Under the pieces are notes generated by a model, which was not told where the DNA came from, did not search any database, and saw only the letters and a program-made list of their open reading frames with translations. Positions 2,081 through 48,890 of a DNA stretch of 64,000 nucleotides are shown one piece after another; the stretch's first letter is position 1, and each line of letters begins with the position of its first letter. Made by a program: the position numbers and the translations under genes. Origin of the DNA: an uncultured Spirochaetota bacterium (GTDB lineage: Bacteria > Spirochaetota > Spirochaetia > SZUA-6 > Fen-1364); contig CAWAHW010000002.1 in assembly GCA_963781885.1 (NCBI GenBank), positions 531,119-595,118 on the forward strand, given 5' to 3'.

Positions 2081-2983
2081 CTACAACAGCTCGTTCGCCG
2101 TGAGCGCCCGCTTGATCTCGGTCGCCTGCTCGGGGCCCATGGGCTCCAGCGGCGCGAGCGCCTTGCCCGCGCCGATGCCCATGAGCGAGGCGGCGTGCTT
2201 GAAGCCCGTTACCCAGCTCGCCGGCCCGCCGACAAGCGGCGCGCGCACGGGCTGCAACTTGGCGAATAGCCGCGTCACGGCCTCCCAATCCGCCCGTGTG
2301 GCCGCATCGAAAAGCCGCACGAACAGCGCAGGGGCGATGTTGGCCGTCCCCGGCACGATGCCCGCGGCGCCTGCCTTCAGCTCTTCCACCAGCGTGACCT
2401 CGTCACCGGCAAGCACGGAAAGTCCCACATCCTTGCCGCGTTTCACGAGATCGCGGAAATAGGCGACGTCGCCCGAGCTTTCCTTGCAGTACCGTATCCA
2501 TCCGCGCCGCGCCATGTCGCAGACCATTCCCACGTCCAGCGCGACACCCGTGCTCTGGGGGATGTTGTAGGCGATCATCTCCATGTCGCCGGCCGCCTCG
2601 CGCGCCGCGGCGTAAAGACGAAGCTGCTCGGAGGCGCTCCTGGCTGCAATGTAGAAGCTTGGTGTCAGGACGAAGCCGCGGCACCCGACCTGGCGCAGCA
2701 CGCGCACCTTCTCGATGACGCGGGAGGCCGACGTCTCCATGACGCCCGTCACGAGGCTCGTTTTCGATCCGCACTCGTCGTATGCGATCTCCGCCAAGCG
2801 CTGCCATTCCGCGAACGTGAGGAGGGGTCCTTCACCCGCGGTGCCCCCGGCGAAAATCCCGCGCACACCCGCGGCGATGAGCCGGCGTATCAGGGACCGC
2901 AGCCCCTGCTCGTCCACCCGCTCCTGCGCATTGGTGGGTGTGATGATGGGAACGACGACGCCATGCAGAGACTGTTTGTCCAC
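2081..2983 (-). CDS. Dihydrodipicolinate synthase/N-acetylneuraminate lyase family aldolase
   Basis: 300-aa ORF with DHDPS-family motifs (GTTGE, YNIP, conserved Lys region). GTG start at 2983 preceded by a GGGAGG RBS. Confidence 0.75.
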   Translation of the reverse strand: MDKQSLHGVVVPIITPTNAQERVDEQGLRSLIRRLIAAGVRGIFAGGTAGEGPLLTFAEWQRLAEIAYDECGSKTSLVTGVMETSASRVIEKVRVLRQVGCRGFVLTPSFYIAARSASEQLRLYAAAREAAGDMEMIAYNIPQSTGVALDVGMVCDMARRGWIRYCKESSGDVAYFRDLVKRGKDVGLSVLAGDEVTLVEELKAGAAGIVPGTANIAPALFVRLFDAATRADWEAVTRLFAKLQPVRAPLVGGPASWVTGFKHAASLMGIGAGKALAPLEPMGPEQATEIKRALTANELL

Positions 2984-3028
2984 GATAACCTCCCTGGAGC
3001 GCCGGGCTTCAGACCGGGCGCGCCGGCA

Positions 3029-4174
3029 TCATGACGAAAGCGGGTATCGCCCCGCGTTCCTCACCTCGTCGCACATGGCAACGATATTCTGAGGCGGCAC
3101 ATCGGGCTGGATGCAGTGCACGGCCGCGGCGACATAGCCGCCCCCCGGGGCAAGATCGCCGATGCGGCGCCGGACCTCGGCGCGCACGTCAGCTTCGCTG
3201 CCGTGGGGAAGGACGGTCTGGGTATCGATGGCGCCGCAGAAGGAGAGCCGGCCGCCGAACTCCCGTTTCAGACGGGCGGTGTCGGCGAGGTCCTTTGCCG
3301 AGACCTGCACGGGGTTCAGCAGGTCGACACCGACATCGGCCAGGTCCCCGATGAGCGGATAGATGTTGCCGCAGGAATGGAAGAAGACCTTCGCGCGGGT
3401 ACCCTCGTGAATCGCCGCGAGCGTCTCCGCCTGGTGGGGCTTGACGAGCCGTCGGTATAGCGCGGGCGCCATGAATGTCGAGTCCTGCGTGCCCAGGTCA
3501 TCGCCCGTGAGTGCGATGTCGACAAAGTCTCCCACCTGACGGAAGAGCTCGCGGAGATACGGGATCATGCGGATCTTGAACTCGTGCATGAGCGCAAGGA
3601 AGAAGTCCTCGTCCGCCGCCAGATCCATCAGGCACTCGGAAAGGCCCCGCATGAGGTATGCCTGCTCGAAGAGAGTGACGCCCGTCATGAGGATGCAGGC
3701 TTTGCCGGACTGCTGGATCGCCCGGCAGCGCGCGGCCAGGCCTTCGAAACGGGACGGCGCCGACAGATCGGGCCAGGGGTAACGGGGCAGATCCTCAATG
3801 CGCGCGTTGCGCAGCGGAGGCTCGATCACCTCGAAGTAGCCGGTGCCCGGGTTGCGCGTCCAGGTGCAGCCCCAGTCGTCGACCAGCTCGTCCGGCGAGA
3901 CGTCGCGGCGAAGCGTGGATGCCGCGGGACCGGGCACGCAGGGGCGGCCGTCCGAGCCCAGGCGCTCCATCACCGCCTCGTCCATCCACGTGTACTGGAA
4001 TTGCCGCGATATCCAGCGCAGGGGACCCGGCTCGATGCCAAGGTGCCTCGCAAGACGCGGGTAGCCGGGCCCCAGGACCGTGGTGGCACCCGACGTTCCG
4101 ATGAAGAGAGGGACCCGGTCCGGCTCCTCGTGATTCAGCGCCATCGCCACGCGTTCGCGCGACGTCATGCCCAT
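3029..4174 (-). CDS. Uroporphyrinogen decarboxylase (URO-D) family protein (MtaA/CmuA-like), paralog 1
   Basis: The ORF-track frame extends to 4381, but the real start is ATG at 4174 (MGMTSRERV) with a GGAGAGGAG RBS. URO-D/MtaA-type N-terminus and C-terminal motifs. Confidence 0.75.
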   Translation of the reverse strand: MGMTSRERVAMALNHEEPDRVPLFIGTSGATTVLGPGYPRLARHLGIEPGPLRWISRQFQYTWMDEAVMERLGSDGRPCVPGPAASTLRRDVSPDELVDDWGCTWTRNPGTGYFEVIEPPLRNARIEDLPRYPWPDLSAPSRFEGLAARCRAIQQSGKACILMTGVTLFEQAYLMRGLSECLMDLAADEDFFLALMHEFKIRMIPYLRELFRQVGDFVDIALTGDDLGTQDSTFMAPALYRRLVKPHQAETLAAIHEGTRAKVFFHSCGNIYPLIGDLADVGVDLLNPVQVSAKDLADTARLKREFGGRLSFCGAIDTQTVLPHGSEADVRAEVRRRIGDLAPGGGYVAAAVHCIQPDVPPQNIVAMCDEVRNAGRYPLSS

Positions 4175-4199
4175 TTGTGTCTCCTCTCCCCGCGCCGGC

Positions 4200-5327
4200 C
4201 TAGTAGGTCCCCATGGCAAGGCCCTTGTCCACGAAGTGCCGGTAGGTGGGGTAATCGACAAGGCTCGACACGCTGTGGTCCACCTGCAGGATGTACCCGC
4301 TGCCGGCCATTGCTCCGGGAAGCTTGCGTGAAAGCTCCGCATCGACCACGGAAAGGTCATTCGTCTCCAGGGTCCGCGCATCCATGCCGCCGATCAGCGC
4401 GATCCTGTCCCCCACGTCCTTCTTGATCTTCAGCAGATCCATGCCGGCCTTCGTCTCGATCGGCTGGAGGCAGTCGATGCCCGCCTCCAGGAGGGACGGC
4501 AGCAGCGCTTCAACGAAGCCGTCGCAGTGGAGGATCACGGGAAGCCCCCGGCTGTGCGCGAAGTCGAAGAGTCTCTTGTGCGCGGGAAAAACGATCTGGC
4601 GATACATCGCGGGAGACATGAAGGGCTTGTTCTTGAACCCCAGGTCATCCCACACCCAGAGGCCATCGGGCAGGCCTTCTTTCGCGAAGAGTTGCTCAAG
4701 CAACCGGATCGTGACCGTGGCAAAGAGGTCGGCCATCTCGGTTACCCATGGCTCGTCGAGCGCCATCCCCATGAGCAGGTACTCGTGCCCGCACATGGGT
4801 GACATGAGGTCGAAGGCGCCGACGACCCCGCAGGAGAGAAAGAGCTCCTGCCGGGCGCATTTCTCCCTCATCTGCCGGTAGCGGTCGGAGCGGATGCGGC
4901 GGGAATCCAGGCTGAGATTCGTGAGGTGCGGCTTGATGTGCTCCTCCCACCCCGCCCGGTCGCGCACCGTGAAGTCAACGTGCTCGGGAGCGCCCGACCC
5001 GTTCTTCAGCCAGCGCAGGAAGGCGCCGTTTCCGTCGCGGATCAGCTTTGCCGTGTCCGTTTCCTCCACGACGGCTTGCCCGGCGTCAAGGTCGGCCACC
5101 AGCTCCAGCACATTGCCCGGCATGGGAGTGATTTCCCCGCTTGTGCGACGGACGTCCAGGCCGAAATGATCGCTCACGTCCTCAGGCGCCTTGTACCAGC
5201 CCTGAGCGCACCACGTGTCGGCCGTCTCCCGCCAGAAGACTTCGAAGAGACCCACCCTGTCCACGGGCTGATGCTTCAGGATCCTCGAGATGCGCTCCCT
5301 GCTCGTGAGGGGGGAAGCCTTTTTCAT
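4200..5327 (-). CDS. Uroporphyrinogen decarboxylase (URO-D) family protein, paralog 2
   Basis: Start MKKASPLTSRERI at 5327 (the ORF-track frame extends to 5534). ATGA start/stop overlap with the upstream gene. URO-D family conservation (HCDG, GGMD regions). Confidence 0.75.
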   Translation of the reverse strand: MKKASPLTSRERISRILKHQPVDRVGLFEVFWRETADTWCAQGWYKAPEDVSDHFGLDVRRTSGEITPMPGNVLELVADLDAGQAVVEETDTAKLIRDGNGAFLRWLKNGSGAPEHVDFTVRDRAGWEEHIKPHLTNLSLDSRRIRSDRYRQMREKCARQELFLSCGVVGAFDLMSPMCGHEYLLMGMALDEPWVTEMADLFATVTIRLLEQLFAKEGLPDGLWVWDDLGFKNKPFMSPAMYRQIVFPAHKRLFDFAHSRGLPVILHCDGFVEALLPSLLEAGIDCLQPIETKAGMDLLKIKKDVGDRIALIGGMDARTLETNDLSVVDAELSRKLPGAMAGSGYILQVDHSVSSLVDYPTYRHFVDKGLAMGTY

Positions 5328-6415
5328 GGTGTTCGATCTCCTCTTTTTCGTGTCAGGGACGGCGATGCCCCCATCATGCGCGCGGCGAGGTGCTCGATGG
5401 GTGTTCGCGGTCCCCGGAAAAATCGCACGGTGCTCACGTCGTCGTACCGGTTTCTGCCGGTGTCCCCGCCGATGGCGGGCGCGTGATACTCCAGCTCGCT
5501 GAAGCTGCCCAGGGCCGCATTGTTCACGGCGCATGCCTGCACGGCGCAGGCGGGCGGACCGGATCGCGGCGTGTCGATGTAGAGGAGACCCGGGTCCACC
5601 GCGAAATCCCGCACGATGAGATCGGCGCGCCCGCCGTTCCCGTGCAGGTAGCCCACGCGACCCGTGACCGATTCAGGGGGCAGCCCGATCTTCTTGTCTC
5701 CCTGTCCCCGCATCGCCCACTGGACGAGCGCCTGCTGCCGCCCCACGTCCTCCGCGGGGATGAGACCGAAAAAAAGGACCGGTTCGGGGCGATCTTTCAC
5801 GCCGAAGAGCATCACCCCGCCGTGGGGAAGCTGCAGGAGGTTCCAGAGCCCCACGGGGGTGCGCGGCGCGAGCTGCGTGACCTCGAGGGTGCAGCGCAGG
5901 GTGTAGCCGCAGGACAGGATCCCCTGCACCGGCAGATCGTTGCGCACGGCATCCGGGTCCATCGCTTCGACGCTTTTTGAAAGCGACAGCCCGACATCCT
6001 CGGCTGTGCGAAACGAGTGGAGGGAGAAGGAGGTGGACATGACCAGGCGTGTCGCCTCCCGGCGGCAGGTGAAGCTGCCGGGATCGAATACGCGGGGCTG
6101 GAAGTAGCCTTCCTCCCTTGGGTAGCGCGGGAGGAAGAAATCCGCTTCGGGTGCAATCCAAGTGCGGTCACCGCCGGTATTGCACCATGCGCCTGATTCG
6201 AAGAGACGGCGCGCGCTGTCCGTCCGGTCCAGCGCGGAATTGTTCCAGAGGAAGCCCTCCTCCTCGGTTCCGGGAAAGACGCCCAGCACGCGCGCCCCAT
6301 GGGGGAGCACGACGACGCGTGCGCCGTCCGGTGCACGGAGGATCTCGGCGGGCTTGCCTGCCTCGGCCAGCCGCGCGGCCAGGGCGGCGGTAGCCCCGTC
6401 AGACTTTGACGCCAT
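5324..6415 (-). CDS. Hypothetical protein (no recognisable family), translationally coupled to the URO-D paralog
   Basis: 363-aa ORF with protein-like composition. Start ATG at 6415, 13 nt after the upstream stop; its TGA overlaps the next ATG (ATGA). Confidence 0.5.
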   Translation of the reverse strand: MASKSDGATAALAARLAEAGKPAEILRAPDGARVVVLPHGARVLGVFPGTEEEGFLWNNSALDRTDSARRLFESGAWCNTGGDRTWIAPEADFFLPRYPREEGYFQPRVFDPGSFTCRREATRLVMSTSFSLHSFRTAEDVGLSLSKSVEAMDPDAVRNDLPVQGILSCGYTLRCTLEVTQLAPRTPVGLWNLLQLPHGGVMLFGVKDRPEPVLFFGLIPAEDVGRQQALVQWAMRGQGDKKIGLPPESVTGRVGYLHGNGGRADLIVRDFAVDPGLLYIDTPRSGPPACAVQACAVNNAALGSFSELEYHAPAIGGDTGRNRYDDVSTVRFFRGPRTPIEHLAARMMGASPSLTRKRGDRTP

Positions 6416-11149: not shown

Positions 11150-12137
11150 TCATCCTTCGGCGTACACGTGACTCATGACCGATCCGGGCTCGGGCAGGGG
11201 GCTCGCCAGCGCAAAGGCAGCCGCCTCCTCCGCCATTTGCTTCACCTCGGCATCGATGGCGTCCAGCTCTTTCTTCGTGGCCACCGCGCCGGCGACGATC
11301 TTCGCCCCCAGCAGCCCGATCGGGTCACGGCTCTTCCATTCCGCGACCTCCTCCTGCGTGCGGTAGCCGGCGTCGCGCATGCCTTCAGAGTGCGCGCGCG
11401 TGCGGTAGGTCTTGCATTCGATGAGGGTCGGACCCTCTCCGGCGCGTGCGCGCCGGACCGCCTCCCCGGCCGCCTGCCAGACCGCGAGCACGTCGTTGCC
11501 GTCCACCTCGACGCCGGGAAGCCCATAGGCCGCGGCGCGCGACGCGACGCTGGTGTTCTTCGTCGCCTTTTTGTACGGCACCTCGGTGGCGTACATGTTG
11601 TTCTCGCAGACGAAGATCGGCGGGGATGTCCCACGCCGCGGCGAGATTGATGCCCTCGTGGAAGGAGCCATTGTTTGTCGCCCCGTCGCCAAAGAAGGCC
11701 ACTCCGACGCGGTCGATTTTCAGGATCTTCGCCGCATAGCCGGTGCCCGCGGCAAGGGTGATGCTGGGTCCGACGATGCCGCTGGAGCCCATGAACCCTA
11801 TTTCCGGCTTGAAGATGTGCATGCTCCCGCCGCGGCCGCCCGAGCAGCCGGTCGCCCTGCCGAGCACCTCGGCAAAAAGCTCGCGCGGCGGCACGCCCTT
11901 GGCCAGCGCGTGCCCGTGGCCCCGGTGCGTGCTGAATACGCAGTCATCGCTTCGCAGGTGCGCGCAGACCCCGGTGGCGACCGCCTCCTCGCCGATGTAG
12001 GTGTGCACGCCGCCGTACAGCTTGCCCGCCGCATACATCTTCACGAGCTGCTCTTCACAGCGACGAAGGACGAGCATCGTGCGGTACAGGGCGAGCATCT
12101 GTTCCTTGGTGAGAGCGGGTATCTTTTTCTTGGCCAT
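11150..12137 (-). pseudogene. 2-oxoacid dehydrogenase E1 alpha subunit (TPP-binding), frameshifted in the G4/C4 run at ~11625-11628
   Basis: N-terminal part (MAKKKIPALTKEQ...GDGATNNGSFHEGINLAAAWDIP) lies in frame 11385-12449. C-terminal part (PPIFVCENNMYA...) is ORF 11150-11692. The two join with a 1-nt shift. Confidence 0.7.
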
Positions 12138-13109: not shown

Positions 13110-14183
13110 ATGACTTCGCGCGAAAGGGTCCTTTCCGCGCTCCATCACGTCCAGCCGGACGTCACACCCTGCGACTATTTCTCCACGCCGGAGATACAGC
13201 GCGGTCTCCTGGATCGCCTGCGTGTCTCGTCGGAGGAGGCGCTGCTGGACCGGCTGGGGGTGGACATCCGCTACGTCGCGCCGCCCTACACGGGACCGCG
13301 GCTTCCCTCCTACGATGACGGCTCGGAGACGGACATATGGGGGATCCGCAAGAAGCCGATGCCGAACGACTACGGCGATTATGCGGAGCCCGTGGGACTT
13401 CCCTATGCGGGCTGGACCACGGTGGAGGAGGCCGCGGTTTTTCCCTGGCCGAGCCCGGACTGGTACGACTATTCTGCAATGCCCGCCCTCTGCGCGCGCT
13501 ATCCCCATCGTGCCGTGGCGGTCGGCGGCTTCGGGATACAGGATTTCATCAACGGCACCGCATTTGGGCGCGGCGTGGAGCAGGTGCTTCTCGATATCGC
13601 CCTCGATGACCCGGTGTACCTCTTCATCGTGGAGAAAAGGCACCGTTTCGCCCTCCAGCACATCGACAGGATACTCACGGCGGCAAAGGGAAGGATCGAC
13701 CTCGTCCTCTGCGGCGATGATTTCGGCAGTCAGCGCGGCACGCTCATCTCCCCGACGTCCTTCGACACCCTGTTCGCGCCGCGCAAGAAGGAGTTCTTCG
13801 ACATGGTCCATTCCCACGGCGCGAAGGTCACGCATCACTGCTGCGGATCCAGCCGCGCGTTCTTCCCCCGGTTCATTGCGCTGGGCATGGACAGCATCCA
13901 GACGATACAGCCGCGCGCCGAAGGCATGAACCCCTACACGCTCAAGGCGGAGTTCGGCGGCCGCATCTGCCTGCACGGGGCGGTGGATGTCCAGGGATGG
14001 CTGCAGCACACGAAGCCCGACATGATCCGAAGCGAGGTGCACCGGCTCATGGACGAGGTGGGCAGCGGCGGCGGGTACATCCTCGCTCCCAGCCACAACC
14101 TGCAGCCGGACACGCCCATCGAAAACGTGCTGGCCGTCTATTCCGCCGTGGCCGAGCGCCGGGGCGACCCGAAGCTCGCGTAG
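13110..14183 (+). CDS. Uroporphyrinogen decarboxylase (URO-D) family protein, paralog 3
   Basis: 357 aa. Same family as 3029-4174 and 4200-5327 (MTSRERVLSALHH..., HCCG, GGGYILAPSHN). Confidence 0.75.
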   Translation: MTSRERVLSALHHVQPDVTPCDYFSTPEIQRGLLDRLRVSSEEALLDRLGVDIRYVAPPYTGPRLPSYDDGSETDIWGIRKKPMPNDYGDYAEPVGLPYAGWTTVEEAAVFPWPSPDWYDYSAMPALCARYPHRAVAVGGFGIQDFINGTAFGRGVEQVLLDIALDDPVYLFIVEKRHRFALQHIDRILTAAKGRIDLVLCGDDFGSQRGTLISPTSFDTLFAPRKKEFFDMVHSHGAKVTHHCCGSSRAFFPRFIALGMDSIQTIQPRAEGMNPYTLKAEFGGRICLHGAVDVQGWLQHTKPDMIRSEVHRLMDEVGSGGGYILAPSHNLQPDTPIENVLAVYSAVAERRGDPKLA

Positions 14184-33177: not shown

Positions 33178-36100
33178 TCAAAAGAGGGGGAGCTGTCGGC
33201 TTTTGCGTCGCCGATTCGGCAGCGTGCTGCGGAGAGAGAGGGGGATGTCGCCGATGAAACGCGACGGAAGGCATTCACGGAGCTGGCCGTACACGCGGCG
33301 CCTCGCGCAATGGCTGATGAAGAGCCGGTCGCCCGCGCGCGTCATGGCCACGTAGAAGAGCCGCCGTTCCTCTGCCAGGTCGTCCGGCAGAGGGGTGATG
33401 CCTTCCTCGGCTCCCGCGATGAAAACGACCGGGAACTCCAGGCCTTTCGCCGCGTGGAACGTGAGGAGCGTCACCTTCTGCGCGGGGCGCGGCCCCTCGC
33501 TCTCCCGTGCGCACAGAGACACGTGTGAGAGAAAACCGGGCAGGTCGGTCCCGAAGCGCGCGGCGCTGGACCTGATGGTCTCTTCGCCGAGGGTGATATC
33601 CGGCACCGTCCGATCCAGCGGTATGGCCGTCTGCATCACCAGGTCCAGCGCCGCGCAGATTCCGGCGTCCGCCGCGGTGCGGGCCATCAGCGCGCCATTC
33701 GCCAGGATCGCGTCCAGGGCTCCCGTCGTGCCGGTGCGCTTCTCGTGCCGGCGGAGGATGTGGAGCGCCACCGCGTCCGCCGGGTCGGCGGCGAGATTGA
33801 GCGCGGCGATCAGGGCATCGAAGGGTTCATCGTCGGCGAGCGGCGCATTGGAGGCGACTGCAAGAGGAAGCCCGGCCTCCTGCAGGGACGGCAGCAAGGC
33901 ATCCCGGACGGCGCGGGTGCGAAAAAGCACGGCGATGTCGGAAAAGGCATACCCGGTCGCTTCCCGCCCGCGTGCGGCGTCGACGGAGACGGAGTCCACT
34001 CCTCCGACGAGGCCCCGAATTTCACCCGCGATGAAGCGTCCTTCCTCTTCCGGGTCGCTCACCGCGGCGACGCGTATCGCCTGCCCCGGGCCACGGACCG
34101 CCGACAGCAAAGGGCCGTCCTGCCCGCGATCCCTCGCGATGACGGCCGCGGATGCCTCCACGATGCAAGCGCTCGACCGGTAATTGCGTCCAAGGGAATA
34201 AGACTCCGACCGTGAGAGAAGGGCAAAACGCTGGAAGAGCTCCCGGTCCGATCCGCGGAATCCGTAGATGGCCTGGTCGGGATCGCCGATGCAGAACACG
34301 GCCCCCACGTGCGCCGCGAGAAGCTCCAGCAGCGCGAACTGCGGCGTATTGATGTCCTGCAGCTCGTCCACGGCAACGGCGCAGAAGCGCCGGCCGATCG
34401 ATGCACAGAGGGACGAATCTGCCCGGAGAATACCGACGAGCTTTCCCACGAGGCCCGCGATGTCGACGCAGCCTGCCCCGGCGATTTCCGTCTCGTAGGC
34501 GGCAATCGCCGCCGCCAGGTCGGGGTCCGGCAGGGCTTTACCCTCCCACGCGCTTTCCATGGCGGTGGAAAGCCCGCGGATGCGGGTGGCTGGCTCGGCC
34601 GGAAAAAGCATTTCCAGATGCGCACGCCGCCGCGCGGGCGTGACCACGCTGGGTGAGGAGAGGATCGAGCTCGCGGAGGAGCGACCAGCTGAATGAATGG
34701 AACGTTGCCACGGTCGCGTCGGCCGCACGGGCCGGCGCCAGCCGGGCGAGTCTTTCGGAAAGCTCTCCGGCCGCTCGGGTCGTGAAGGTGAGGGCAAGGC
34801 CCCTGCCGCTGCCGCCATCGCCGCGCCCGCTCGCCTGCGCGAGCCAGTGGGTGAGGAGCCGGGTCTTTCCCGACCCGGGCCCCGCGCTCACGACGATGCG
34901 CGGCGCCGCACTTTCCACGATGGCGCGCTGCGCCGCGTCGAGTGCATCGACAGGCACCGAAGTTGCAGGTCCGCGTCCCGCGGCGCGGTCTGCGTCGCCG
35001 CGCGGCGACACGGCAGCCTGCACCCGGCGCGCGGACCGCCGGACTGCGGGGAAAAGCTCGTCCTGGCCGCGCAGCCGTTCCCGCTCATCGTCGCCGAACA
35101 CCCGTATGACGCCGAACTCGCCGTCGTAGCCGGGCCGCGCATCGATCCTGCCTTCCCGCATGCGGGTCACCGCTTCTGCCAGCAGGGCGCCGTGTCGGCG
35201 TCGGATGTCCTCGACCGGTGCGTCCAGCAGGAGGCCGTACTCGCTGCCGAACGCGCCCACGATGCGCGCGTAGGCGGAGACGACCGCGCGCGAGCCGACC
35301 CCCGCGCCGGCAAGCTCCGCGAGAAGCTCGGCAAGCGGGATGAGGGAATGAAAACCTTCGCCGGGTCGCGGCGGCGCGGGTGCCGCACGGTCGGCAAGGG
35401 CCATCACGCGGCTCAGCACGCCGATCGTGAGGGGCGTGCCGCACACCGGGCACATCCCCCCCGCCTCCCGCGAGCGCGCGGGCTCCCAGCAGATGCCGCA
35501 CGTGCGGTGGCCGTCGAGGTGGTACTTGCCTTCCTCGGGATAGAACTCGCAGGTGCCCAGGAATCCGTGCCCGGTGCGAAGCGCATCCGTTACCCCGCGC
35601 CAGCTGGGCTCGGTGTCCAGGAGATTGGCCTCCCGGCCGAGATTCGGCGGCGAGTGCGCGTCGGAGTTGGAGACCAGCCGGTAACGGTCCAGCGCGCTCC
35701 ATCTCCAGTTCATGGCGGGGTCGGAGGAGAGGCCTGTCTCCAGCGCGAAGATGTACGGCGTGAGCTCCTCGAAACAGTCCTCGATGCGGTCGAAGCCGGA
35801 CTTCGACCCGAAGAGGGAGAACCAGGGCGTCCAGATGTGCGCCGGTATCAGGAAGGAGTCCGGGTTTGTTTCCAGGAGCAGCGACAGCAGGTCTTTTGGA
35901 TCGAGCCCGAGTATCGGCCTGCCGTCGGAGGCGATGTTGCCAATGCGCGCGAGCTTCGCGGCAAGATGCCGTGCATCCTCCAGCGTCGGCACGCCGATGA
36001 GGCTGTGCACCTTGTGCACGACGCCGTGCTTCCTGTAGATGGAGCTGATCTCGGTCGTGGGGAGAAAGCGCACGTCCCGGTCCGCCGGTGCGGCGCCTTC

Positions 36101-36322
36101 CAGCGGTGAATCCCGCGGGGGATCCTTCAGGACGTAGAGACCGTCACGCTCCACGAGGGATTCGCTGAGCTCCGCGAACCACTGGGGATGCGTGAAGTCC
36201 CCCGTGCCGACGATGTCGATTCCCTTGACCCGGGCCCAACGATGGAACCCATTCAGGTCCGCCTCCCTGCTCGTGGCCCGGGAATACCGGGAATGCACGT
36301 GCAGGTCGGCGACGAGCCTCAT
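33178..36322 (-). pseudogene. PHP-domain (COG1379-like, Zn-ribbon) fused to UvrD/PcrA-type helicase, frameshifted at ~34640-34700
   Basis: N-terminal PHP (MRLVADLHVHSRYS), CxxC...CxxC ribbon, then Walker A GPGSGKT and TFHSF in the frame ending at 34538. Remaining helicase motifs (DELQD, GDPDQ, SxGRNYRS, VALTRA-like) lie in frame 33178-34818. Confidence 0.65.
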
Positions 36323-40753: not shown

Positions 40754-41566
40754 ATGAAAAGCAGGGCCACGTCGAGGGATTGGCTCCCTCTTGCACGGGG
40801 ACGCAGGGGCGCGCAGGAGGTCCCGACGGGCGAGGCATTCCGCCCGGAGTGGATCGATTTCGAGCGGGGCATCCGCGTGGGCAATCTCCAGCCGCATGAG
40901 CGCATCACGCAGATCCTCAAGCACCGGTTGGAGGACGACCATGGCACGGGCTTCGTGACGGACCGGTGGGGCCGCGGGGTTTACTGGCAGTGGATCTGCT
41001 GGCTGCCGCGCGCTGACCGCGAGGCAAAGCCTGTATCGAATACGATCAACTTCGGCTGCGCGAAGCTCTACATTTCGGTCGATCGTTCGCTGCGCATCTT
41101 CCAATGCGGTCTTGCCGTCGAACGGGGATTCGCCGGCGGCACACCCTCGTTCCCGGGCATCCTCCTGCAGCCGGACTGGGACTGGCACCGGCTCATGAAG
41201 CAATGCGCTGACGGCACGGCCGTGGACGTCGAGCTGCGCCGTCTGGTCAACCGCGAAGGATTCACGGCGGCCATTGTCGGCGCCGGCGGCAGGACCTGGA
41301 CGGGCAAAGAGCTCACCTCGGCGCGCCAGATCCGGGAGGCGGCGCGCAAGGCTCCCCGCGACGCCTGGAGCGGCTTCGACGTGTACTATCCGATGCCGGA
41401 ATCCGAGGTGCGCGCCGCCAGCGGCTTCGATCTCGTGCAGGGCATCCTCGGCGCGTTCGCCGAGGTGGTGCCGGTCATGAACGCCTGCATGCAGGTGACC
41501 CTCGCGTCCCGGGCTATTTCTTCTGGGCCCGGATCGGCGACTCCTTCAGGAAAGACGCGAGGATAA
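40754..41566 (+). CDS. Hypothetical protein (Trp-rich; no family recognised)
   Basis: 270-aa ORF with protein-like composition, immediately downstream of GH1. Confidence 0.45.
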   Translation: MKSRATSRDWLPLARGRRGAQEVPTGEAFRPEWIDFERGIRVGNLQPHERITQILKHRLEDDHGTGFVTDRWGRGVYWQWICWLPRADREAKPVSNTINFGCAKLYISVDRSLRIFQCGLAVERGFAGGTPSFPGILLQPDWDWHRLMKQCADGTAVDVELRRLVNREGFTAAIVGAGGRTWTGKELTSARQIREAARKAPRDAWSGFDVYYPMPESEVRAASGFDLVQGILGAFAEVVPVMNACMQVTLASRAISSGPGSATPSGKTRG

Positions 41567-42867: not shown

Positions 42868-44054
42868 TCAGCTTCCTGCGTCGCCCGCAGGCCTCCGGTT
42901 GCGGACGAGGCGGACGGTGACGACCGTCAGGACAACAAGGAAGCAGTTGAGGCCGAGGTAGAACCAGAAGCCGCCGTGAATGCCGACAGTCTGCGCAAGG
43001 AGCGACATCAGGAAGGGGAAGACAATGGATCCTGCCGCGCCACCGGTTGCGACGGAGCCGACGGCGACGCCGGTCTTGTAGTAGCGCCCCACGACCGTCA
43101 TCAACAGGGGATAGAAACCCGAGAAGCCCAGGCCCGTGAAGAAAAACGCGATGATGACCGCCACCGCGGAATGGACCAGCAGGACGATGAGGAGCATGGC
43201 CGCGGAGAACGAAGTCAGGCCGAGCATCAGCATTTCCTGCCGCCTGCCCTTGTACCAGAAAGAGACCGCGAGCCTGCCGACGAGCAGGCCCACCCAGACC
43301 ACGGCGACGGCGTATGCCCCCTGCGAGGCGGCGGATCCCAGCACCTGCACGAAGAACACGGAAGACCAGGAAAAGACGCCGATCTCCGTGCCGACGTACA
43401 CGAAGAGCGCGAGGATGAGGATGATGAGGAGGGGCTCACGCACGAGACGCAGTCCCGGCTCCTTTCGCTTTCCGCTCACCGGCCGGGGTGCGGGAAATGC
43501 GCGATCCCGAAAAGGACCGCGATGATGATGAGGAGGATGCCCGCGGCGAGAAAAACGGCGAGCATCGATACACCCGCGCCCGAGACGTAGCCGACGGCCG
43601 CGGGCCCGATGATCGCCCCGACGCAGAACGCCGCGTGGAGCAGGTTCATGAGCCTGCTTTGGCCGTTTCGCTCGATATGGATGATCTCCAGATTCGCCGT
43701 CACCTCCATGGAGCCCTGGCAGAGACCGATCGCGAATGCGAAGGCGAGGTTGGGCCAGGGGGAGGGGACGCGGCCGAACAGCGAGACACCGATGGCCCCG
43801 GCGACAAGGCCGACCACGATCACGACCTTCGCCGGGACGCGCTGGATGATGACGCCGCTCAGGAATGCCGAAAGCAGGTACCCCACGGCGCTTCCCGCCA
43901 GCACGATGCCGGTGACCGTGTATGACCAGTGATAGTCGCGGATGAGCTGGGGGAGTGAGGCGCCGGCGATGGTGAAGATCATGCCGAAGCCCATGAAGCC
44001 CGCGAGGAAGAGGACGTAGAGGCGGCGGCTTGCCGCATCGAGTTTTCCGATCAT
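42868..44054 (-). pseudogene. MFS transporter, frameshifted in the G4/C4 run at ~43481-43490
   Basis: TM1-6 in frame 43476-44096 (start MIGKLDAASRR with an AAGGAAG RBS). TM7-12 in the tail of frame 42868-44625. Confidence 0.6.
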
Positions 44055-44147
44055 GTGTGTTTCTTCCTTCATAAGCGAACGGAGCGGCAAGGTCAAGCGC
44101 CATGGGTCGCCGATGAAAGACCACGGTCGTGACCGAATGAGCCGCGG

Positions 44148-44176
44148 TTGAGTTATGTCCGGATTTGTGATATATC
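44148..44176 (+). promoter_or_regulatory. Candidate promoter of the cytochrome-metVF operon (TTGAGT -17- TATATC), overlapping a CRP/FNR-like half-palindrome TGTGATATATCAGA
   Basis: Read directly. TSS predicted near 44183. GAGGAG RBS at 44200-44205 before ATG 44221. Confidence 0.35.
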
Positions 44177-44220
44177 AGAACTTGACCTTCCGAAATCCTC
44201 GAGGAGTCAGGATCCACCAG

Positions 44221-45387
44221 ATGTTGCGCGCGAGGCGTGTTCTGCTCTGCGGCATCACCATGACGCTCATTGTCCTGGGGTTGCCGTCGTATGCCCAGAG
44301 CGATGCCACGTCCGCGGCCTCGTCGCAGGCCTCCACCAGGTCGGCGCCGGCGCCGACCGCCCCTTCTTCGAAGACTCCCGCGTGGACAAGGGTGCACAGG
44401 GTCGATGATTTCGTGACGGCGGGGGACATTCGCTCGGGCACCGTCCTCTCCGACGCGGACGCGCCGGTTGTCGTCTTCTCCCATGGAAGCCACACCGCCG
44501 CGGGCGTGAGCTGCGAGCAGTGCCACCACACCGGCGTGCAGGGCTTCCAGGCGCCCGCCTGTGCCTCGTGCCACAAGGGAGCCGCGGCGGTGGACGTCAT
44601 GCACGCGGCATGCATCACCTGCCACCAGCGCACAGGCTCAGGCCCGGTGAGCTGCAACGACTGCCATACGGCGCGCCAGACGAGCCTTGCCGGCGTCTAC
44701 CGCTTCGAGCTTTCCGACGTCGTCCGGGGGCCGCTGTTCATCGCCGCGTGGGCGCTCTTCGTTCTGGGTTTCGCGTGGCGCATCCTTCAGTTCAGCCGTC
44801 TCACGCGCGCAACCCGTTCGCGCCTCACCGCGCCGTTGCCGTCGGTTTCCGCGGAGTGGAGCGGCGCCGCCAACGATCGCGGCTTCTTCGCGCGGCTGCG
44901 GCGCTGGGTGCGCGGTACGATATTCGGCACGCATCCCGTCATGGGTGTGGTGAGCCTCCTCTTCCACCTCCTCCTGGTGCTTCTGCCCCTTCTTCTTCCG
45001 GCGCACAACATCCTCTTCGCGCTGACCTTCCGCGTGAGCCTGCCCACGCTCCCCGAGCCCTTCATGGACAAGGCCACACTCGGGCTTCTGGCGATCGGTG
45101 TCTTCTTCCTGGCGCGCCGCATCTTCTCCCCCCGGATACGGGCGCTCAGCACCCTACGCGACTACCTCGTGCTCCTGCTCGTTGCCGCCCCGTTCGTCAC
45201 CGCATACATGGCCTACCACCATTGGCTGGACTACCGCACGGTGCTCGTGACGCACATGATCGTCGGTGAAATACTCATTGCGCTGATCCCCTTCACGAAG
45301 CTCGGGCACATGCCCTTCCTGATCTTCGCCCGGTTTTTCGTGTCCGGCGAATACTCCTGGAGACCGGGGAAGCGGAGGTGGAGATGA
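44221..45387 (+). CDS. Periplasmic tetraheme cytochrome c3 domain fused to NarI/DsrM/HmeC-type dihaem-b membrane anchor
   Basis: Sec signal (MLRARRVLLCGITMTLIVLGLPSYA). Four CxxCH (CEQCHH, CASCHK, CITCHQ, CNDCHT). C-terminal 5-TM domain with conserved His in TM helices, typical of the nitrate reductase gamma family. Confidence 0.7.
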   Translation: MLRARRVLLCGITMTLIVLGLPSYAQSDATSAASSQASTRSAPAPTAPSSKTPAWTRVHRVDDFVTAGDIRSGTVLSDADAPVVVFSHGSHTAAGVSCEQCHHTGVQGFQAPACASCHKGAAAVDVMHAACITCHQRTGSGPVSCNDCHTARQTSLAGVYRFELSDVVRGPLFIAAWALFVLGFAWRILQFSRLTRATRSRLTAPLPSVSAEWSGAANDRGFFARLRRWVRGTIFGTHPVMGVVSLLFHLLLVLLPLLLPAHNILFALTFRVSLPTLPEPFMDKATLGLLAIGVFFLARRIFSPRIRALSTLRDYLVLLLVAAPFVTAYMAYHHWLDYRTVLVTHMIVGEILIALIPFTKLGHMPFLIFARFFVSGEYSWRPGKRRWR

Positions 45388-45776
45388 GCGGACATTCCGT
45401 GGACGCGAAGACACTCCAGAGGATCTCCCGGGTCGTGGAGGGGAAGAAGGACATGATCCGCCTCTCGCTCCAGGCCTGCGTCCACTGCTCGCTGTGCGCG
45501 GAGAGCTGCTTCCTGTACCGCCAGAGCGGCGGGGACCCGACGTACACGCCGGCGTACAAGGCCATCAACACGATCGGAAAGATCGCAAAAAGCAGGGGCA
45601 GGCTTTCGGACGATGCCTACGAGCGGATCCGCGAGCTTGCCTGGGACAAATGCGTTCTCTGCATGCGCTGCTACTGCCCCATCGGCATCAGCGTTCCCTC
45701 CCTCATCGCCGCGGCGCGCAGCGCCTGTCGAGAGAAAGGGGTGCACCGCTGGTACACGACAAGGAGGAACGCATGA
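45378..45776 (+). CDS. 2x[4Fe-4S] ferredoxin-like protein (HdrC / HdrD-N-terminal-like)
   Basis: CVHCSLCAESC and CVLCMRCYCP cluster motifs. 132 aa. Overlaps both neighbours (10 nt upstream, ATGA downstream). Confidence 0.65.
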   Translation: MEMSGHSVDAKTLQRISRVVEGKKDMIRLSLQACVHCSLCAESCFLYRQSGGDPTYTPAYKAINTIGKIAKSRGRLSDDAYERIRELAWDKCVLCMRCYCPIGISVPSLIAAARSACREKGVHRWYTTRRNA

Positions 45777-46177
45777 AGGGAAGAAGGGCGTTTTTCGTGC
45801 TTCTCGCATTCGCACTCGGAACGTGCGCGCCGGCGATCTTTGCGGACCCCCCCGCCGTTCTCATGCTCGCAAAGGCGAAGGTCTTCGGCTCGCTCAGCAG
45901 GCCCGCGGTGCGCTTTACGCACGGCGCCCACGGCACCATCCAGGGGGTGAGCTGCCTCACGTGCCATCACGTGTACAAGGACGGGAAAAACGTCCTCGAC
46001 CTCGCCCAGCTCACGGTCGGCAATCCCGCGATACGCTGCGAGACGTGCCACGCGAGCCCGCGCGACCTTGAATCGTCCTTTCACAAGTTGTGCATCACCT
46101 GCCACGACACCGCGAAGGCGCAGGGCAAGGTGACCGGTCCGCGCGACTGCGGCGACTGTCACGCGTGGGACAGGTGA
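45773..46177 (+). CDS. Tetraheme cytochrome c3 (periplasmic)
   Basis: AAGGAGG RBS, signal peptide MKGRRAFFVLLAFALGTCAPAIFA, four CxxCH (CLTCHH, CETCHA, CITCHD, CGDCHA). 134 aa. Confidence 0.75.
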   Translation: MKGRRAFFVLLAFALGTCAPAIFADPPAVLMLAKAKVFGSLSRPAVRFTHGAHGTIQGVSCLTCHHVYKDGKNVLDLAQLTVGNPAIRCETCHASPRDLESSFHKLCITCHDTAKAQGKVTGPRDCGDCHAWDR

Positions 46178-46189
46178 GCAGGGGGGAAT

Positions 46190-46880
46190 ATGGTCAAAGC
46201 GAAACCAAAACCGCTCGGTGAGATATTCGACAGGGTGAAGGGCTACCGGCGCGTCCTGATCGTCGGCTGCGGCGGATGCACCTCGGTCTGCCTTGCCGGG
46301 GGACAGCGCGAGTCGCTCGCCCTCGCCGACGAGCTTTCTGCCTGTGCGCGCGCGGCGCGCGTGCCCCAGCAGTACGCGACGTTCGTCACCGAAAGGCAGT
46401 GCAACGCCGAGTTCGTCGACGAGATCGGGGAGCGGGCCGCCAACTGCGACTGCCTGATCTCCCTGGCGTGCGGGGCCGGTGCGGGGCTCCTGGCGGACGC
46501 GTTCCCTTCGCTTCCGATGTTCCCCGGCCTGGACACGATGTTCGTCGGCGTGGACCGCGACGTGGGCTTCTACGAGGAGCGCTGCAGGACCTGCGGCACC
46601 TGCGTCCTGGGCGACACGGGAGGGATATGCCCGGTCACGCGCTGCTCCAAGGGCGTCCTGAACGGGCCTTGCGGCGGCACACGGGAGGACGGCTCCTGCG
46701 AGCTTGCCGACGGCATCCGCTGCGCCTGGCACGATATATATGACAGGCTGAAAGCGCAGGGGCGTCTTTCCCAGATGCTCATCGTGCGGCCTCCCATGGA
46801 GTGGGTCGACCGGGGTGTGCGGACCCTCATCCAGAAGGGCTACGAAGGCGCGGTACGCCGCCAGAACGGGCTGAGGGGGA
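46190..46880 (+). CDS. metV: MetV (methylene-THF reductase small subunit, MTHFR_C Zn/FeS domain); 3' end uncertain
   Basis: N-terminus MVKAKPKPLGEIFDRVKGYRRVLIVGCGGCTSVC plus downstream Cys clusters match acetogen MetV. The ORF-track frame runs to 47332 as Arg-rich junk overlapping metF, so a late frameshift or mis-called stop is likely. Confidence 0.55.
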
Positions 46881-46886
46881 TGCCCA

Positions 46887-47813
46887 ATGAAGTCGGGCAG
46901 CAATCTGGAAAAGGTGCTTTCGGCAGGGCATTTCGCCGTGACGGCGGAGCTCGGCCCGCCGCCGGGCGCCGACGTGGATTTCGTCGCCAAGAAGGCGGAG
47001 CTGCTGCGCGGCGCCGTCGACGCGGTGAATGTCACCGACAACCAGACCGCCGTGGTCCGCATGTCCAGCCTCGCGGTGTCGGCGCTGCTGGTCGGGATGG
47101 GCATCGAGCCGGTCATGCAGATGGTGTGCCGCGACAGAAACCGCATCGCCATGCAGAGCGATGTCTTCGGCGCCTCGGCGCTGGGCATCCGCAACCTCAC
47201 CTGTCTCATGGGGGACCACCAGGCCTTCGGCAACCAGACCGGCGCAAAGAAGGTGTACGACGTCGACTCCGTCCAGTTGATCTCCATCGTGAAGCGCATG
47301 CGCGACGAGCGGAAGATCCTGGGCAGCGATGAAGAGATCCTCGGCAGCGTGCCGATGTTCATCGGCTGTGCGGCCAATCCCTTTGCCAAGCCGTACGAGT
47401 TCCGCGCCCTGCGTCTTGCGAAAAAGGTGGAGGCGGGCGCGGACTACGTGCAGACGCAGTGCGTCTACGACGTGAAGATGTTCGCCGAATGGATGAAGGC
47501 GGTCCGCGACCTCGGCGTCCACACGAAGTGCCGCATCCTGGCGGGGGTGACGCCCCTGAAGTCGGCCGGCATGGCGCGCTACATGGCCGAGCAGGTCCCC
47601 GGCATCATCATCCCGCCCGAGATCATCGCGCGCTTGGCCGCGGCCCCCAAGGGCAAGGGCGCCGAGGTGGGGCTCGCCATTTGCGCCGAGATCATCGAGC
47701 AGCTGCGCGCCATCGAGGGCGTGGCCGGCATCCATATCATGGCAATCGAGTGGGAGCAGAAGGTCCGCGAGATCGTCCAGACGGCCACGCTGCTTCCGCG
47801 GCCCGTCGTGTGA
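46887..47813 (+). CDS. metF: 5,10-methylenetetrahydrofolate reductase
   Basis: 308 aa. MetF TIM-barrel motifs (FAVTAELGPP, CRDRN, AGADYVQTQ). Confidence 0.8.
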   Translation: MKSGSNLEKVLSAGHFAVTAELGPPPGADVDFVAKKAELLRGAVDAVNVTDNQTAVVRMSSLAVSALLVGMGIEPVMQMVCRDRNRIAMQSDVFGASALGIRNLTCLMGDHQAFGNQTGAKKVYDVDSVQLISIVKRMRDERKILGSDEEILGSVPMFIGCAANPFAKPYEFRALRLAKKVEAGADYVQTQCVYDVKMFAEWMKAVRDLGVHTKCRILAGVTPLKSAGMARYMAEQVPGIIIPPEIIARLAAAPKGKGAEVGLAICAEIIEQLRAIEGVAGIHIMAIEWEQKVREIVQTATLLPRPVV

Positions 47814-47915: not shown

Positions 47916-48890
47916 GTGGACTCCATGGACGGGGCAGACGCGCGCGGCAACGACAGGCTGGAGCCGGACGACCTGCAGGAAATCGTCGTCGCGTGCGACA
48001 GGGACGGGATCATCCTGTCCTGGAACCGGGCGGGCGAGGAGATCACCGGTTTCCTGCACGACGACGTCATCGGCTATCACCTTGATGCCGTCATAGCCCC
48101 AGAGTCGCGCCAGTTCCTCGACCAGATCCTCACGGTGGAGAGGAGCGGATCGCTGCTTCCCGGTCTCCCCGTGCGCCTGCAGACGAGCTTCGGCTGGGTG
48201 GTGCCGGCGGAGGTGACATCGGTGCCCCGGCGCGGCGCCGACGGCTGGCTGCTCATCTTCCGCGATACGACGCTGAAGGTGCAGCTCCAGGAGCATCTCG
48301 ACCGCCTGGACGTGCTCTACCGCGGTCTGGTGGAGGATTCACCCGACATCATCTACGTGCTCGATGAGCGCGCGCGCGTGCTTTTCATCAACGACACGGT
48401 GGAAAAGCTCCTCGGCTATTCAAAAAGGGAGATCATCGGCAATGATCTCATCGAGCTCGTCCATCCCGACGATCGCCAGCAGGCGTACTGGCCCCTGCGG
48501 GAAAGACGCCACGCGGACCGCGCGACGCGCAACCTCCGCCTGCGCTTCCTCACCCGCGCGGGACGGCAGCGGCGCTATGACCTTGATTTCATCTACATCT
48601 CCCTGACGGCGGTCGGCCTGGGGTCGAACAGGCTGGGGGCGCAGCCGCGCGGCGAGCCGGGCGGCGCGCTGGGAACCCAGGGCGTGGCGCGCGACGTCAC
48701 GGATCTCGTCATGCTGAACGAGTTTTCGCGACAGGCGGAGCTCATCCTGCCTGTCTGTTCGATCTGCCACAGGATCCGCGTGACGTCGGGCAGCACCGTG
48801 GAATGGCTGCCGCTTTCCGACTACCTGACGCGCAGGACGGGTGTACTTTTTTCCCACACCTACTGCCCCGACCACGTACCCGCGCAATAG
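47916..48890 (+). CDS. PAS-domain sensor protein (two PAS domains) with C-terminal Cys/His-rich tail
   Basis: PAS S-box features. C-terminal CSICHRIR...SHTYCPDH. No kinase or DNA-binding output domain. Confidence 0.6.
   Translation: MDSMDGADARGNDRLEPDDLQEIVVACDRDGIILSWNRAGEEITGFLHDDVIGYHLDAVIAPESRQFLDQILTVERSGSLLPGLPVRLQTSFGWVVPAEVTSVPRRGADGWLLIFRDTTLKVQLQEHLDRLDVLYRGLVEDSPDIIYVLDERARVLFINDTVEKLLGYSKREIIGNDLIELVHPDDRQQAYWPLRERRHADRATRNLRLRFLTRAGRQRRYDLDFIYISLTAVGLGSNRLGAQPRGEPGGALGTQGVARDVTDLVMLNEFSRQAELILPVCSICHRIRVTSGSTVEWLPLSDYLTRRTGVLFSHTYCPDHVPAQ

Follow-up and report, generated by a model that had tools for sequence, protein, structure and literature searches.

A gene cluster linking MetV and MetF to a Tmc-like cytochrome module: a candidate membrane-anchored methylene-tetrahydrofolate reductase in an uncultured Spirochaetota bacterium

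Introduction

It has long been asked, for acetogenesis and for oxidation by the reverse Wood-Ljungdahl pathway alike, how the methylene-tetrahydrofolate (methylene-THF)/methyl-THF couple is tied to energy conservation. A 64,000-nucleotide stretch of DNA from an uncultured Spirochaetota bacterium (assembly GCA_963781885.1, contig CAWAHW010000002.1, positions 531,119 to 595,118; the whole stretch is called the window below) raises this question in a concrete form. At positions 44221-47813, it carries genes for MetV and MetF, the two subunits of a methylene-THF reductase (MTHFR), behind genes for two cytochrome c3 units, a haem-b membrane anchor and an iron-sulfur (FeS) protein. Do these genes encode a membrane link for the reductase, or do two unrelated sets of genes lie side by side? 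We find that the anchor, the FeS protein, MetV and MetF stay together across several phyla. The five genes probably encode one Tmc-like transmembrane redox complex, in which MetV-MetF would replace the CCG (HdrB-like) domain of TmcB.

Four types of MTHFR have been distinguished, namely type I MetF, type II MetVF, type III MetVF-RnfC2 and type IV MetFV-HdrABC-MvhD, and no integral membrane subunit is encoded with any of them (PMC8760232). The reviews describe these enzymes as soluble or Hdr-linked and report that nothing in the genomes pointed to the membrane (PMC8578096, PMC8760232). A redox-loop scheme has long been hypothesised for cytochrome-containing acetogens (PMC8578096). Functionally, it has been demonstrated with membranes of Sporomusa ovata, which catalyze H2-dependent methylene-THF reduction; the type IV enzyme of this organism is membrane-associated and receives electrons from a periplasmic hydrogenase, and a dedicated anchor was not identified (PMC9430772). 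The initial annotation of the locus, made from the sequence alone, had called a membrane link for this couple hypothesised but not characterised. With the S. ovata activity, such a link is not purely a hypothesis any more.

Five tightly packed genes encode the reductase and a cytochrome module

The five genes all lie on the plus strand of the window, and Pfam searches verified their domains, as the initial annotation had described. They encode a cytochrome c3 domain fused to a membrane anchor (g1, 44221-45387, 388 aa), a small FeS protein (g2, 45384-45776, 130 aa from the ATG at 45384, with an alternative GTG at 45378), a second cytochrome c3 (g3, 45773-46177, 134 aa), MetV (46190-46874, ~227 aa after frame correction) and MetF (46887-47813, 308 aa). 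The region had been drawn from position 44148, which is the start of a spurious out-of-frame open reading frame (ORF); the g1 start at 44221 agrees with the homologues. ATGA overlaps join g1 to g2 (45384-45387) and g2 to g3 (45773-45776), and gaps of 12 nt separate g3 from MetV and the corrected MetV stop from MetF. A Shine-Dalgarno-like purine-rich GGAGG/GGGGG stands ahead of each start. The overlaps and the short gaps indicate that the five genes are translationally coupled. The third-position G+C (GC3) of the cluster genes is 0.84-0.92, a strong bias, in a window of ~65% G+C. Scanning the cluster for promoters and terminators gave no sigma-70 match, and the terminator-like matches did not rise above background and lay on the strand opposite to the genes.

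The first gene fuses a cytochrome c3 to a predicted haem-b anchor of the TmcC/HmcE type

The g1 product begins with a Sec-type signal peptide (aa 1-25, 44221-44295), in which a hydrophobic N-terminus is followed by AQ/S (...SYAQ/S) and which is kept in homologues. A tetrahaem c3 domain follows (44446-44685). It matches Cytochrom_CIII (PF02085) with E=6.6e-9 (36.5 bits vs a cut-off of 22.9), carries CxxCH motifs at aa 98, 114, 131 and 145, and has four further His as distal ligands. The membrane domain (44710-45384) contains five predicted transmembrane (TM) helices, namely TM1 167-189, TM2 240-258, TM3 285-303, TM4 312-333 and TM5 340-369. Hydropathy and the positive-inside rule place the anchor N-out/C-in, so that the c3 domain is predicted to be periplasmic and the FeS docking face cytoplasmic. 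The same architecture is repeated in homologues from independent assemblies.

Searching NCBIfam with g1, we obtained TmcC (NF045723) as the best match (E=2.3e-43, profile positions 3-209 of 218) and HmcE as the second (E=2.8e-32). The TmcC score was 148 bits vs an equivalog cut-off of 240, and the anchor of a genuine Tmc/Hmc-type locus (L061) scored 224 bits. The c3 domain matched TmcA (NF045722) with E=4e-9, at 36 bits vs a cut-off of 114. The TmcC scores indicate that the g1 anchor is related to TmcC at the family level and is probably not an equivalog.

Five His residues (H249, H262, H333, H345 and H363) are invariant across 75 anchor homologues, and the same five are common to genuine Tmc/Hmc-type anchors. 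H249 and H262 lie within TM2; H345 and H363 lie within TM5 with the 18-residue spacing of NarI. A profile of the 75 homologues aligned colinearly with E. coli NarI (E=4.4e-4), matching H345/H363 to the NarI haem ligands H187/H205; the part that aligned best was the basic cytoplasmic loop between TM3 and TM4 (RRIFSPRIRAL). The Pfam NarI score of the single g1 sequence was 16.5 vs a threshold of 22.9. With five TM helices, an outside N-terminus, and two His in TM2 and two in TM5 as predicted haem b ligands, g1 has the features of the NarI superfamily (PF02665). We thus read its membrane domain as a predicted five-TM dihaem-b anchor of the TmcC/HmcE type within this superfamily. The initial annotation had named a NarI/DsrM/HmeC-type dihaem-b anchor. 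The NarI part of that assignment stands; a DsrM/HmeC type was ruled out, because NCBIfam returned TmcC and HmcE and no DsrM match.

The FeS protein lacks the catalytic domain of TmcB, and a second cytochrome c3 is exported

The g2 product matches Fer4_8 (E=1e-9) and has neither a signal peptide nor a TM helix. Its Cys residues form two motifs, C34xxCxxCxxxC and C92xxCxxCxCP. The NCBIfam matches were HmcF (E=5e-25), TmcB (E=3e-22) and DsrK (E=3.7e-7), all of them through the N-terminal ~125 aa only, and the protein aligns with residues ~23-137 of TmcB and 32-155 of HmcF. Pfam and NCBIfam scans found no CCG (HdrB-like) domain in it. The only hit of a sequence search against the PDB was HdrC (5odc_C, E=0.12). 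By these matches, g2 corresponds to the N-terminal ferredoxin domain of TmcB/HmcF without the CCG catalytic domain. It had been described as an HdrC-like protein with two [4Fe-4S] clusters. The two clusters and a predicted cytoplasmic location are borne out; the similarity to HdrC is weak, and a truncated TmcB/HmcF N-domain describes the protein better. A periplasmic location, which would have spoken against the proposed complex, is contradicted by the missing signal peptide, by the N-out/C-in anchor, and by a natural fusion (described below) that joins the FeS domain to the cytoplasmic C-terminus of the anchor.

The g3 product is an exported tetrahaem cytochrome c3 of a TmcA-like kind. It matches Cytochrom_CIII with E=1.7e-9 (38.3 bits vs a cut-off of 22.9) and has a signal peptide, four CxxCH motifs and four distal His. 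Against NCBIfam TmcA it scored 68 bits (E=6.8e-19) vs a cut-off of 114. Both g3 and the g1 c3 domain have the make-up of class III cytochromes c. The cluster therefore holds two exported tetrahaem c3 units, as first annotated, both above the PF02085 cut-off and both with their motifs and signal peptides. Taken together, the family scores suggest that the membrane module of the cluster is a sister family of Tmc/Hmc rather than Tmc itself.

MetV and MetF form a MetVF-type pair

The identities of MetV and MetF, given already in the initial annotation, are confirmed by scores far above the Pfam cut-offs. MetV matches PF12225 (MTHFR_C) with E=9.6e-33 (112 bits vs 23), contains 16 Cys and is 50-79% identical to MetV of related loci; a sequence search of the PDB with MetV gave no match. 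MetF matches PF02219 with E=3.1e-37 (128.9 bits vs 24) over profile positions 2-285 of 287, reaches 7e-11 against MTHFR structures in the PDB and is 56-87% identical to MetF of related loci. On these grounds we assign the two as a MetVF-type MTHFR pair, in which MetV would be the Fe-S/Zn subunit and MetF the catalytic flavoprotein.

The metV gene contains a frameshift. As it stands, its frame remains open until 47332, overlaps MetF by 445 nt and reads GYEGAVRRQ.... At 19 related loci MetV is 223-250 aa long, ends in ...GYEGRY... and mostly has an ATGA overlap with the MetF start. Omitting one base at ~46850, within GGCGCGG (46847-46853), gives GYEG-RYAARTG-stop with the stop at 46872-46874. 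The apparent extension of MetV has a GC3 of 0.41, compared with 0.86 for the real MetV and 0.92 for the overlapping frame of MetF. The break lies 7 codons before the end of MetV, and only the last ~7 residues are affected. Other genes of the window are similarly split: a UvrD-like helicase (33178-36322) and an MFS transporter (42868-44096) are intact single genes of 1049 aa and 393 aa, respectively, in a close relative (L081). Because of these genes, the frameshift in metV is probably an assembly indel rather than biology. An E1 dehydrogenase (11150-11692) is represented only by its C-terminal half. The several frameshifted genes suggest indel errors of a long-read assembly rather than pseudogenisation.

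The anchor, the FeS protein and MetVF stay linked across phyla

Scanning an anchor alignment against 185,579 species-representative genomes, we found 281 relatives and retrieved 80 loci, whose gene content was determined by tblastn with the window proteins. MetV and/or MetF lay within 4.5 kb of the anchor and on the same strand at 61 of the 80. Four further loci are truncated at contig ends, and two of those stop within MetV fragments. By the labels of the submitters, the carriers belong to Spirochaetota, Leptospirales, Syntrophaceae, Desulfobacterales (including Desulfotignum, Desulfobacula and Desulfosudis oleivorans, as labels of metagenome-assembled genomes, MAGs), Desulfohalobiaceae, Myxococcota, Acidobacteriota, Planctomycetaceae and Nitrospinaceae. 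The recurrence of the gene set across several phyla makes a chance juxtaposition unlikely, and the synteny is clearly not peculiar to this contig.

The linkage also resists rearrangement. Three gene orders are conserved, namely membrane anchor-FeS-(c3)-MetV-MetF, MetF-anchor-FeS-c3-MetV, and c3-MetV-anchor-FeS-MetF. The membrane and FeS genes stand between MetV and MetF in two of these, so the arrangement is not merely that of two adjacent operons. Among the retrieved loci, the conserved neighbours of MetVF are thus the cytochrome b and FeS genes and not HdrABC or Rnf.

The length of the FeS protein predicts whether MetVF is nearby. Short forms (<200 aa) occurred at 54 loci with MetVF and at 2 without; both exceptions are at contig ends and carry MetV fragments. 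Conversely, full-length forms with the CCG domain (>=300 aa) occurred at 14 loci without MetVF and at 2 with it, and both exceptions are ORF-calling artefacts or fusions. The full-length Fer4+CCG form has 438-460 aa, as at the Desulfocarbo locus L061, which lacks MetVF. The small FeS proteins make up a compact family: a search of 1.84 billion representatives at E<=1e-3 yielded 206 clusters (50% identity).

One member of the small FeS family, P0131, is an anchor (36% identical to g1 residues 167-388, E=2e-42) fused at its cytoplasmic C-terminus to the FeS protein. Such anchor::FeS single polypeptides of ~365-375 aa were found three times (P0131; L062, 243-1340; L072, 1854-2951), and the fusion of L072, a MAG labelled Nitrospinaceae, adjoins MetV and c3. 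The P0131 fusion supports a contact between g1 and g2 as well as the predicted topology.

The c3 parts vary. Only the closest Spirochaetota (L001-L004, L007 and L053) have a c3 fused to the anchor; in the other c3-bearing lineages the c3 is always separate. At least nine spirochaete loci have neither a c3 gene nor a c3 domain (L005, L008, L009, L011, L018, L019, L025, L026 and L038). Anchors without c3 (P0041, P0060, P0068, P0078 and P0115) keep the signal peptide and a Ser/Ala/Thr-rich low-complexity linker, a pattern suggesting that spirochaete relatives have lost the periplasmic haem-c parts more than once. By gene content, the invariant core is thus the anchor, the small FeS protein, MetV and MetF.

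Comparison with known redox modules

TmcABCD of Desulfovibrio vulgaris and HmcE-HmcF of Hmc resemble the cluster in having an exported tetrahaem c3, a haem-b anchor and a cytoplasmic two-cluster ferredoxin domain, and they share the five anchor His and the predicted topology. Tmc has been described as carrying electrons from the oxidation of H2 in the periplasm to the reduction of sulfite in the cytoplasm (PMC5109826). Unlike Tmc, the cluster has an FeS subunit without the CCG domain, lacks a TmcD-like gene, includes MetV and MetF in the operon, scores under the NCBIfam equivalog cut-offs and, in this spirochaete subclade, has one c3 fused to the anchor. A five-TM dihaem-b anchor with an outside N-terminus that docks a cytoplasmic Fe-S protein is also found in NarGHI, DsrMK(JOP), HdrDE, HmeCD and mycobacterial EtfD. 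The catalytic unit here differs from those of NarI-anchored modules; it is a folate-dependent flavoprotein and not a molybdoenzyme or a CCG disulfide reductase. The cluster also differs from DsrMK(JOP), since g1 has no detectable DsrM similarity and g2 shows a weak match to the N-domain of DsrK and no CCG domain.

The acetogen enzymes of types II-IV have the same catalytic pair, MetF (PF02219) and MetV (PF12225), and the same need for a partner of the methylene-THF couple at -200 mV (PMC8760232, PMC8578096). Their partners are of another kind: here an integral haem-b anchor and periplasmic haems c are encoded in the same operon. Neither the cluster nor the window ORFs scanned contained HdrA, HdrB, MvhD, RnfC2 or a CCG domain, and the cluster thus lacks what defines type IV.

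Pathway context in relatives and in the window

In a Syntrophaceae genome (L029), the cluster directly follows CooS/AcsA, AcsB, CdhD and an AcsE-like pterin methyltransferase, a gene order that makes it part of the acs (CODH/ACS) operon there. In a Rectinemataceae genome (L012, 5461-8383), a pterin-binding methyltransferase and a MetF::MTHFR_C fusion stand immediately upstream of the cluster. This methyltransferase has 438 aa with a ~190-aa N-terminal extension, and similar proteins occur in L015 and L016; at all three loci, two MTHFR systems are therefore neighbours. The acs-embedded cluster has further genes next to it in L029 (10754-15474) and in L031/L032 (5291-6958), namely a divergent MTHFR-like gene, a second MetV-MetF pair, and HdrC-like and HdrB-like (CCG) genes. 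Several alternative MTHFR partners may thus coexist in one Syntrophaceae genome.

The rest of the window is devoted to sugar and organic-acid metabolism, transporters, FliG, regulators and an efflux system. Three genes of the URO-D family (MtaA/MtvB-like) are located at 3029-4381, 4200-5534 and 13110-14183, 30-40 kb from the cluster; two of these ORFs overlap by ~180 nt and their starts are uncertain. The genes scanned around them contained no corrinoid-protein (B12-binding) domain and no pterin methyltransferase. The initial annotation had suggested that the URO-D genes feed methyl groups to the same pathway, and their distance, their sugar and organic-acid neighbours and the missing corrinoid-protein domain among the scanned genes do not bear this out.

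A model for electron transfer and its energetics

The core idea of a membrane-anchored, cytochrome-linked MetVF, already put forward in the initial annotation, is supported by the synteny, by the predicted location of the FeS protein and by the absence of a conserved Hdr or Rnf partner. In the complex that we favour, MetV and MetF would assemble physically with the cytochrome module. A periplasmic c3 pool, fed for example by a periplasmic hydrogenase or formate dehydrogenase, would exchange electrons with the exported g3 and the g1 c3 domain. From these haems, the path would cross the membrane by way of the g1 anchor with its two stacked haems b and lead on to the two [4Fe-4S] clusters of g2 at the cytoplasmic face, then to the Fe-S centres of MetV, and finally to the MetF flavin acting on methylene-THF/methyl-THF. 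Every step would be reversible. Running in the reductive direction, the complex would release 2 protons outside and consume 2 inside per methylene-THF, a redox-loop half-reaction that could build proton-motive force. Running in the oxidative direction, it would take electrons from methyl-THF and hand them to quinone or out to the periplasm, which would suit reverse Wood-Ljungdahl oxidisers, syntrophs and methyl-group oxidation.

The potentials are -414 mV for H2, -200 mV for methylene-THF and -74 mV for menaquinone. Passing 2 electrons from H2 to methylene-THF gives about -41 kJ, which suffices to move two charges against ~150-200 mV. Menaquinol cannot drive the reduction, so the forms without c3 imply an oxidative direction or another carrier.

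Several observations weigh against this complex. The family scores fall below the curated cut-offs for TmcC (148 vs 240 bits), NarI (16.5 vs 22.9 bits) and TmcA (68 vs 114 bits). No FeS-MetV or anchor-MetV fusion occurred among the ten intermediate-length relatives checked. The 64-kb window holds no genes for ACS/CODH, fhs, folD, hydrogenase or formate dehydrogenase. If the metV frameshift were real, the locus would be defective in this genome. Lastly, the spirochaete loci without c3 mean that a c3-fed loop cannot be the universal mechanism.

Alternative explanations

The same complex could serve as a methyl-THF dehydrogenase in acetate or methyl oxidation, and not in CO2 reduction by acetogenesis, sending electrons to periplasmic c3, to H2 or formate production, or to menaquinone. 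We regard this oxidative role as a real contender, somewhat short of an even chance. Labels such as Desulfobacterales (Desulfotignum, Desulfobacula and Desulfosudis oleivorans) or Syntrophaceae are common among the carriers, and these are groups that either reverse the Wood-Ljungdahl pathway or grow in syntrophy. The pterin-binding methyltransferase directly upstream in L012 fits an entry of methyl groups as methyl-THF, the window has URO-D methyltransferase-like genes and no acs genes, and electron flow from methyl-THF to menaquinone is exergonic by the established potentials. The sequence does not fix the direction, however, and the URO-D genes are distant, with no corrinoid-protein domain detected nearby. 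The c3-containing form resembles Tmc, whose electron flow is assumed to run inward from periplasmic H2 oxidation (PMC5109826). With a NarI-like quinone site on the periplasmic side, moreover, outward transfer to quinone would dissipate proton-motive force. A related alternative, which we find rather unlikely, takes quinone as the partner of the core, the complex being a quinol:methylene-THF or methyl-THF:quinone oxidoreductase that works through the NarI-type anchor and for which c3 is optional. The constancy of anchor, small FeS protein, MetV and MetF across the loci agrees with it, as do the at least nine spirochaete loci without c3 and the quinol-binding members of the NarI superfamily. Yet quinone-site residues could not be assigned in the anchor, and no quinone biosynthesis genes are visible within the 64-kb window. 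Menaquinol, being at -74 mV, cannot reduce methylene-THF, least of all against a membrane potential, so that electrons would have to flow in the oxidative direction unless the quinone had an unusually low potential.

Two further explanations deny that there is a functional complex at all. The locus could be a decaying pseudogene cluster in this genome with a real frameshift in metV, which lacks a proper in-frame stop and whose tail is unlike the homologues after GYEG. We consider this improbable: at least three other genes in the 64 kb (UvrD-like helicase, MFS transporter and E1 dehydrogenase) are split alike, the first two are intact in relatives, the other four cluster genes are intact with a GC3 of 0.84-0.92, and in MetV only the last ~7 residues are affected. 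Alternatively, the Tmc-like genes and metVF could be functionally independent neighbours, with a soluble type II MetVF and with cytochromes that serve another acceptor. Purified type II MetVF enzymes are soluble (PMC8760232), and the candidates checked included no MetV fusion. Against such independence, two of the three conserved orders interleave the two sets of genes, the linkage is kept across several phyla, and the FeS protein without CCG goes with MetVF at 54 loci vs 2, a truncated module that would otherwise have no catalytic partner. This explanation is very improbable, even more so than the pseudogene. The Tmc-like complex with MetV-MetF as its catalytic head accounts best for the linkage of the invariant core.

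Significance

Full-text searches found no literature that links MetF or MetV with Tmc-, Hmc- or NarI-type subunits, and a prior mention in literature that we did not read is possible. In the D. autotrophicum genome paper, a figure legend names 'MetF-ABC' as well as two TmcBCA clusters, which the text leaves unconnected. As judged from its domains, the cluster is a new combination of known modules, and Tmc/Hmc/Dsr-type modules would then be reusable with a catalytic head other than CCG.

The cluster is a concrete candidate for the membrane coupling site in the Wood-Ljungdahl pathway's methyl branch. Going further, we tentatively propose a fifth class of MTHFR, a respiratory Tmc-MetVF transmembrane complex, and put its chances only a little below even. 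If this class is real, the oxidation of H2 or formate in the periplasm would have methylene-THF as a terminal acceptor, and in reverse methyl-THF would feed electrons to the periplasm or to quinone. The complex would be the genetically encoded site of membrane coupling that the methyl branch has been missing, and it would be widespread in Desulfobacterota, Spirochaetota and other anaerobes. ATP-yield calculations would change for sulfate reducers, for syntrophs and for spirochaetes of peat and sediments that may be acetogens or methyl-oxidisers. Desulfosudis oleivorans, Desulfotignum and Desulfobacula, to which carrier MAGs are assigned, have cultured members, and the proposal is directly testable if cultured strains carry the cluster.

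Neighbouring genes

Downstream of MetF, the plus strand encodes a PAS-PAS protein (47916-48890), a candidate regulator next to the cluster and possibly a member of the unit. Its orthologues in Spirochaetota (57-72% identical) directly follow MetF in L001, L003, L004, L006, L010 and L053. The protein ends in a conserved Cys/His motif, C-S-x-C-[HR]-x-I-R ... S-H-T-[YF]-C-P-[DE]-H, which could serve as a regulatory module that senses metals or redox state. In Syntrophaceae L029, the gene that comes after the cluster likewise encodes a PAS protein, a histidine kinase.

Upstream of the cluster, an ORF at 40754-41566 encodes 270 aa with strong coding bias and no Pfam match. Its counterpart in L081 (278 aa, likewise of no family) occupies the same place between the GH1 glycosidase and MFS genes. 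In L001, ~3 kb upstream of the cluster, a gene at 2497-4767 encodes a NorB-like protein that combines a COX1 domain of the quinol/cytochrome nitric-oxide reductase type with a NorB cytochrome c-like domain, which hints at respiratory haem proteins in these Spirochaetota.

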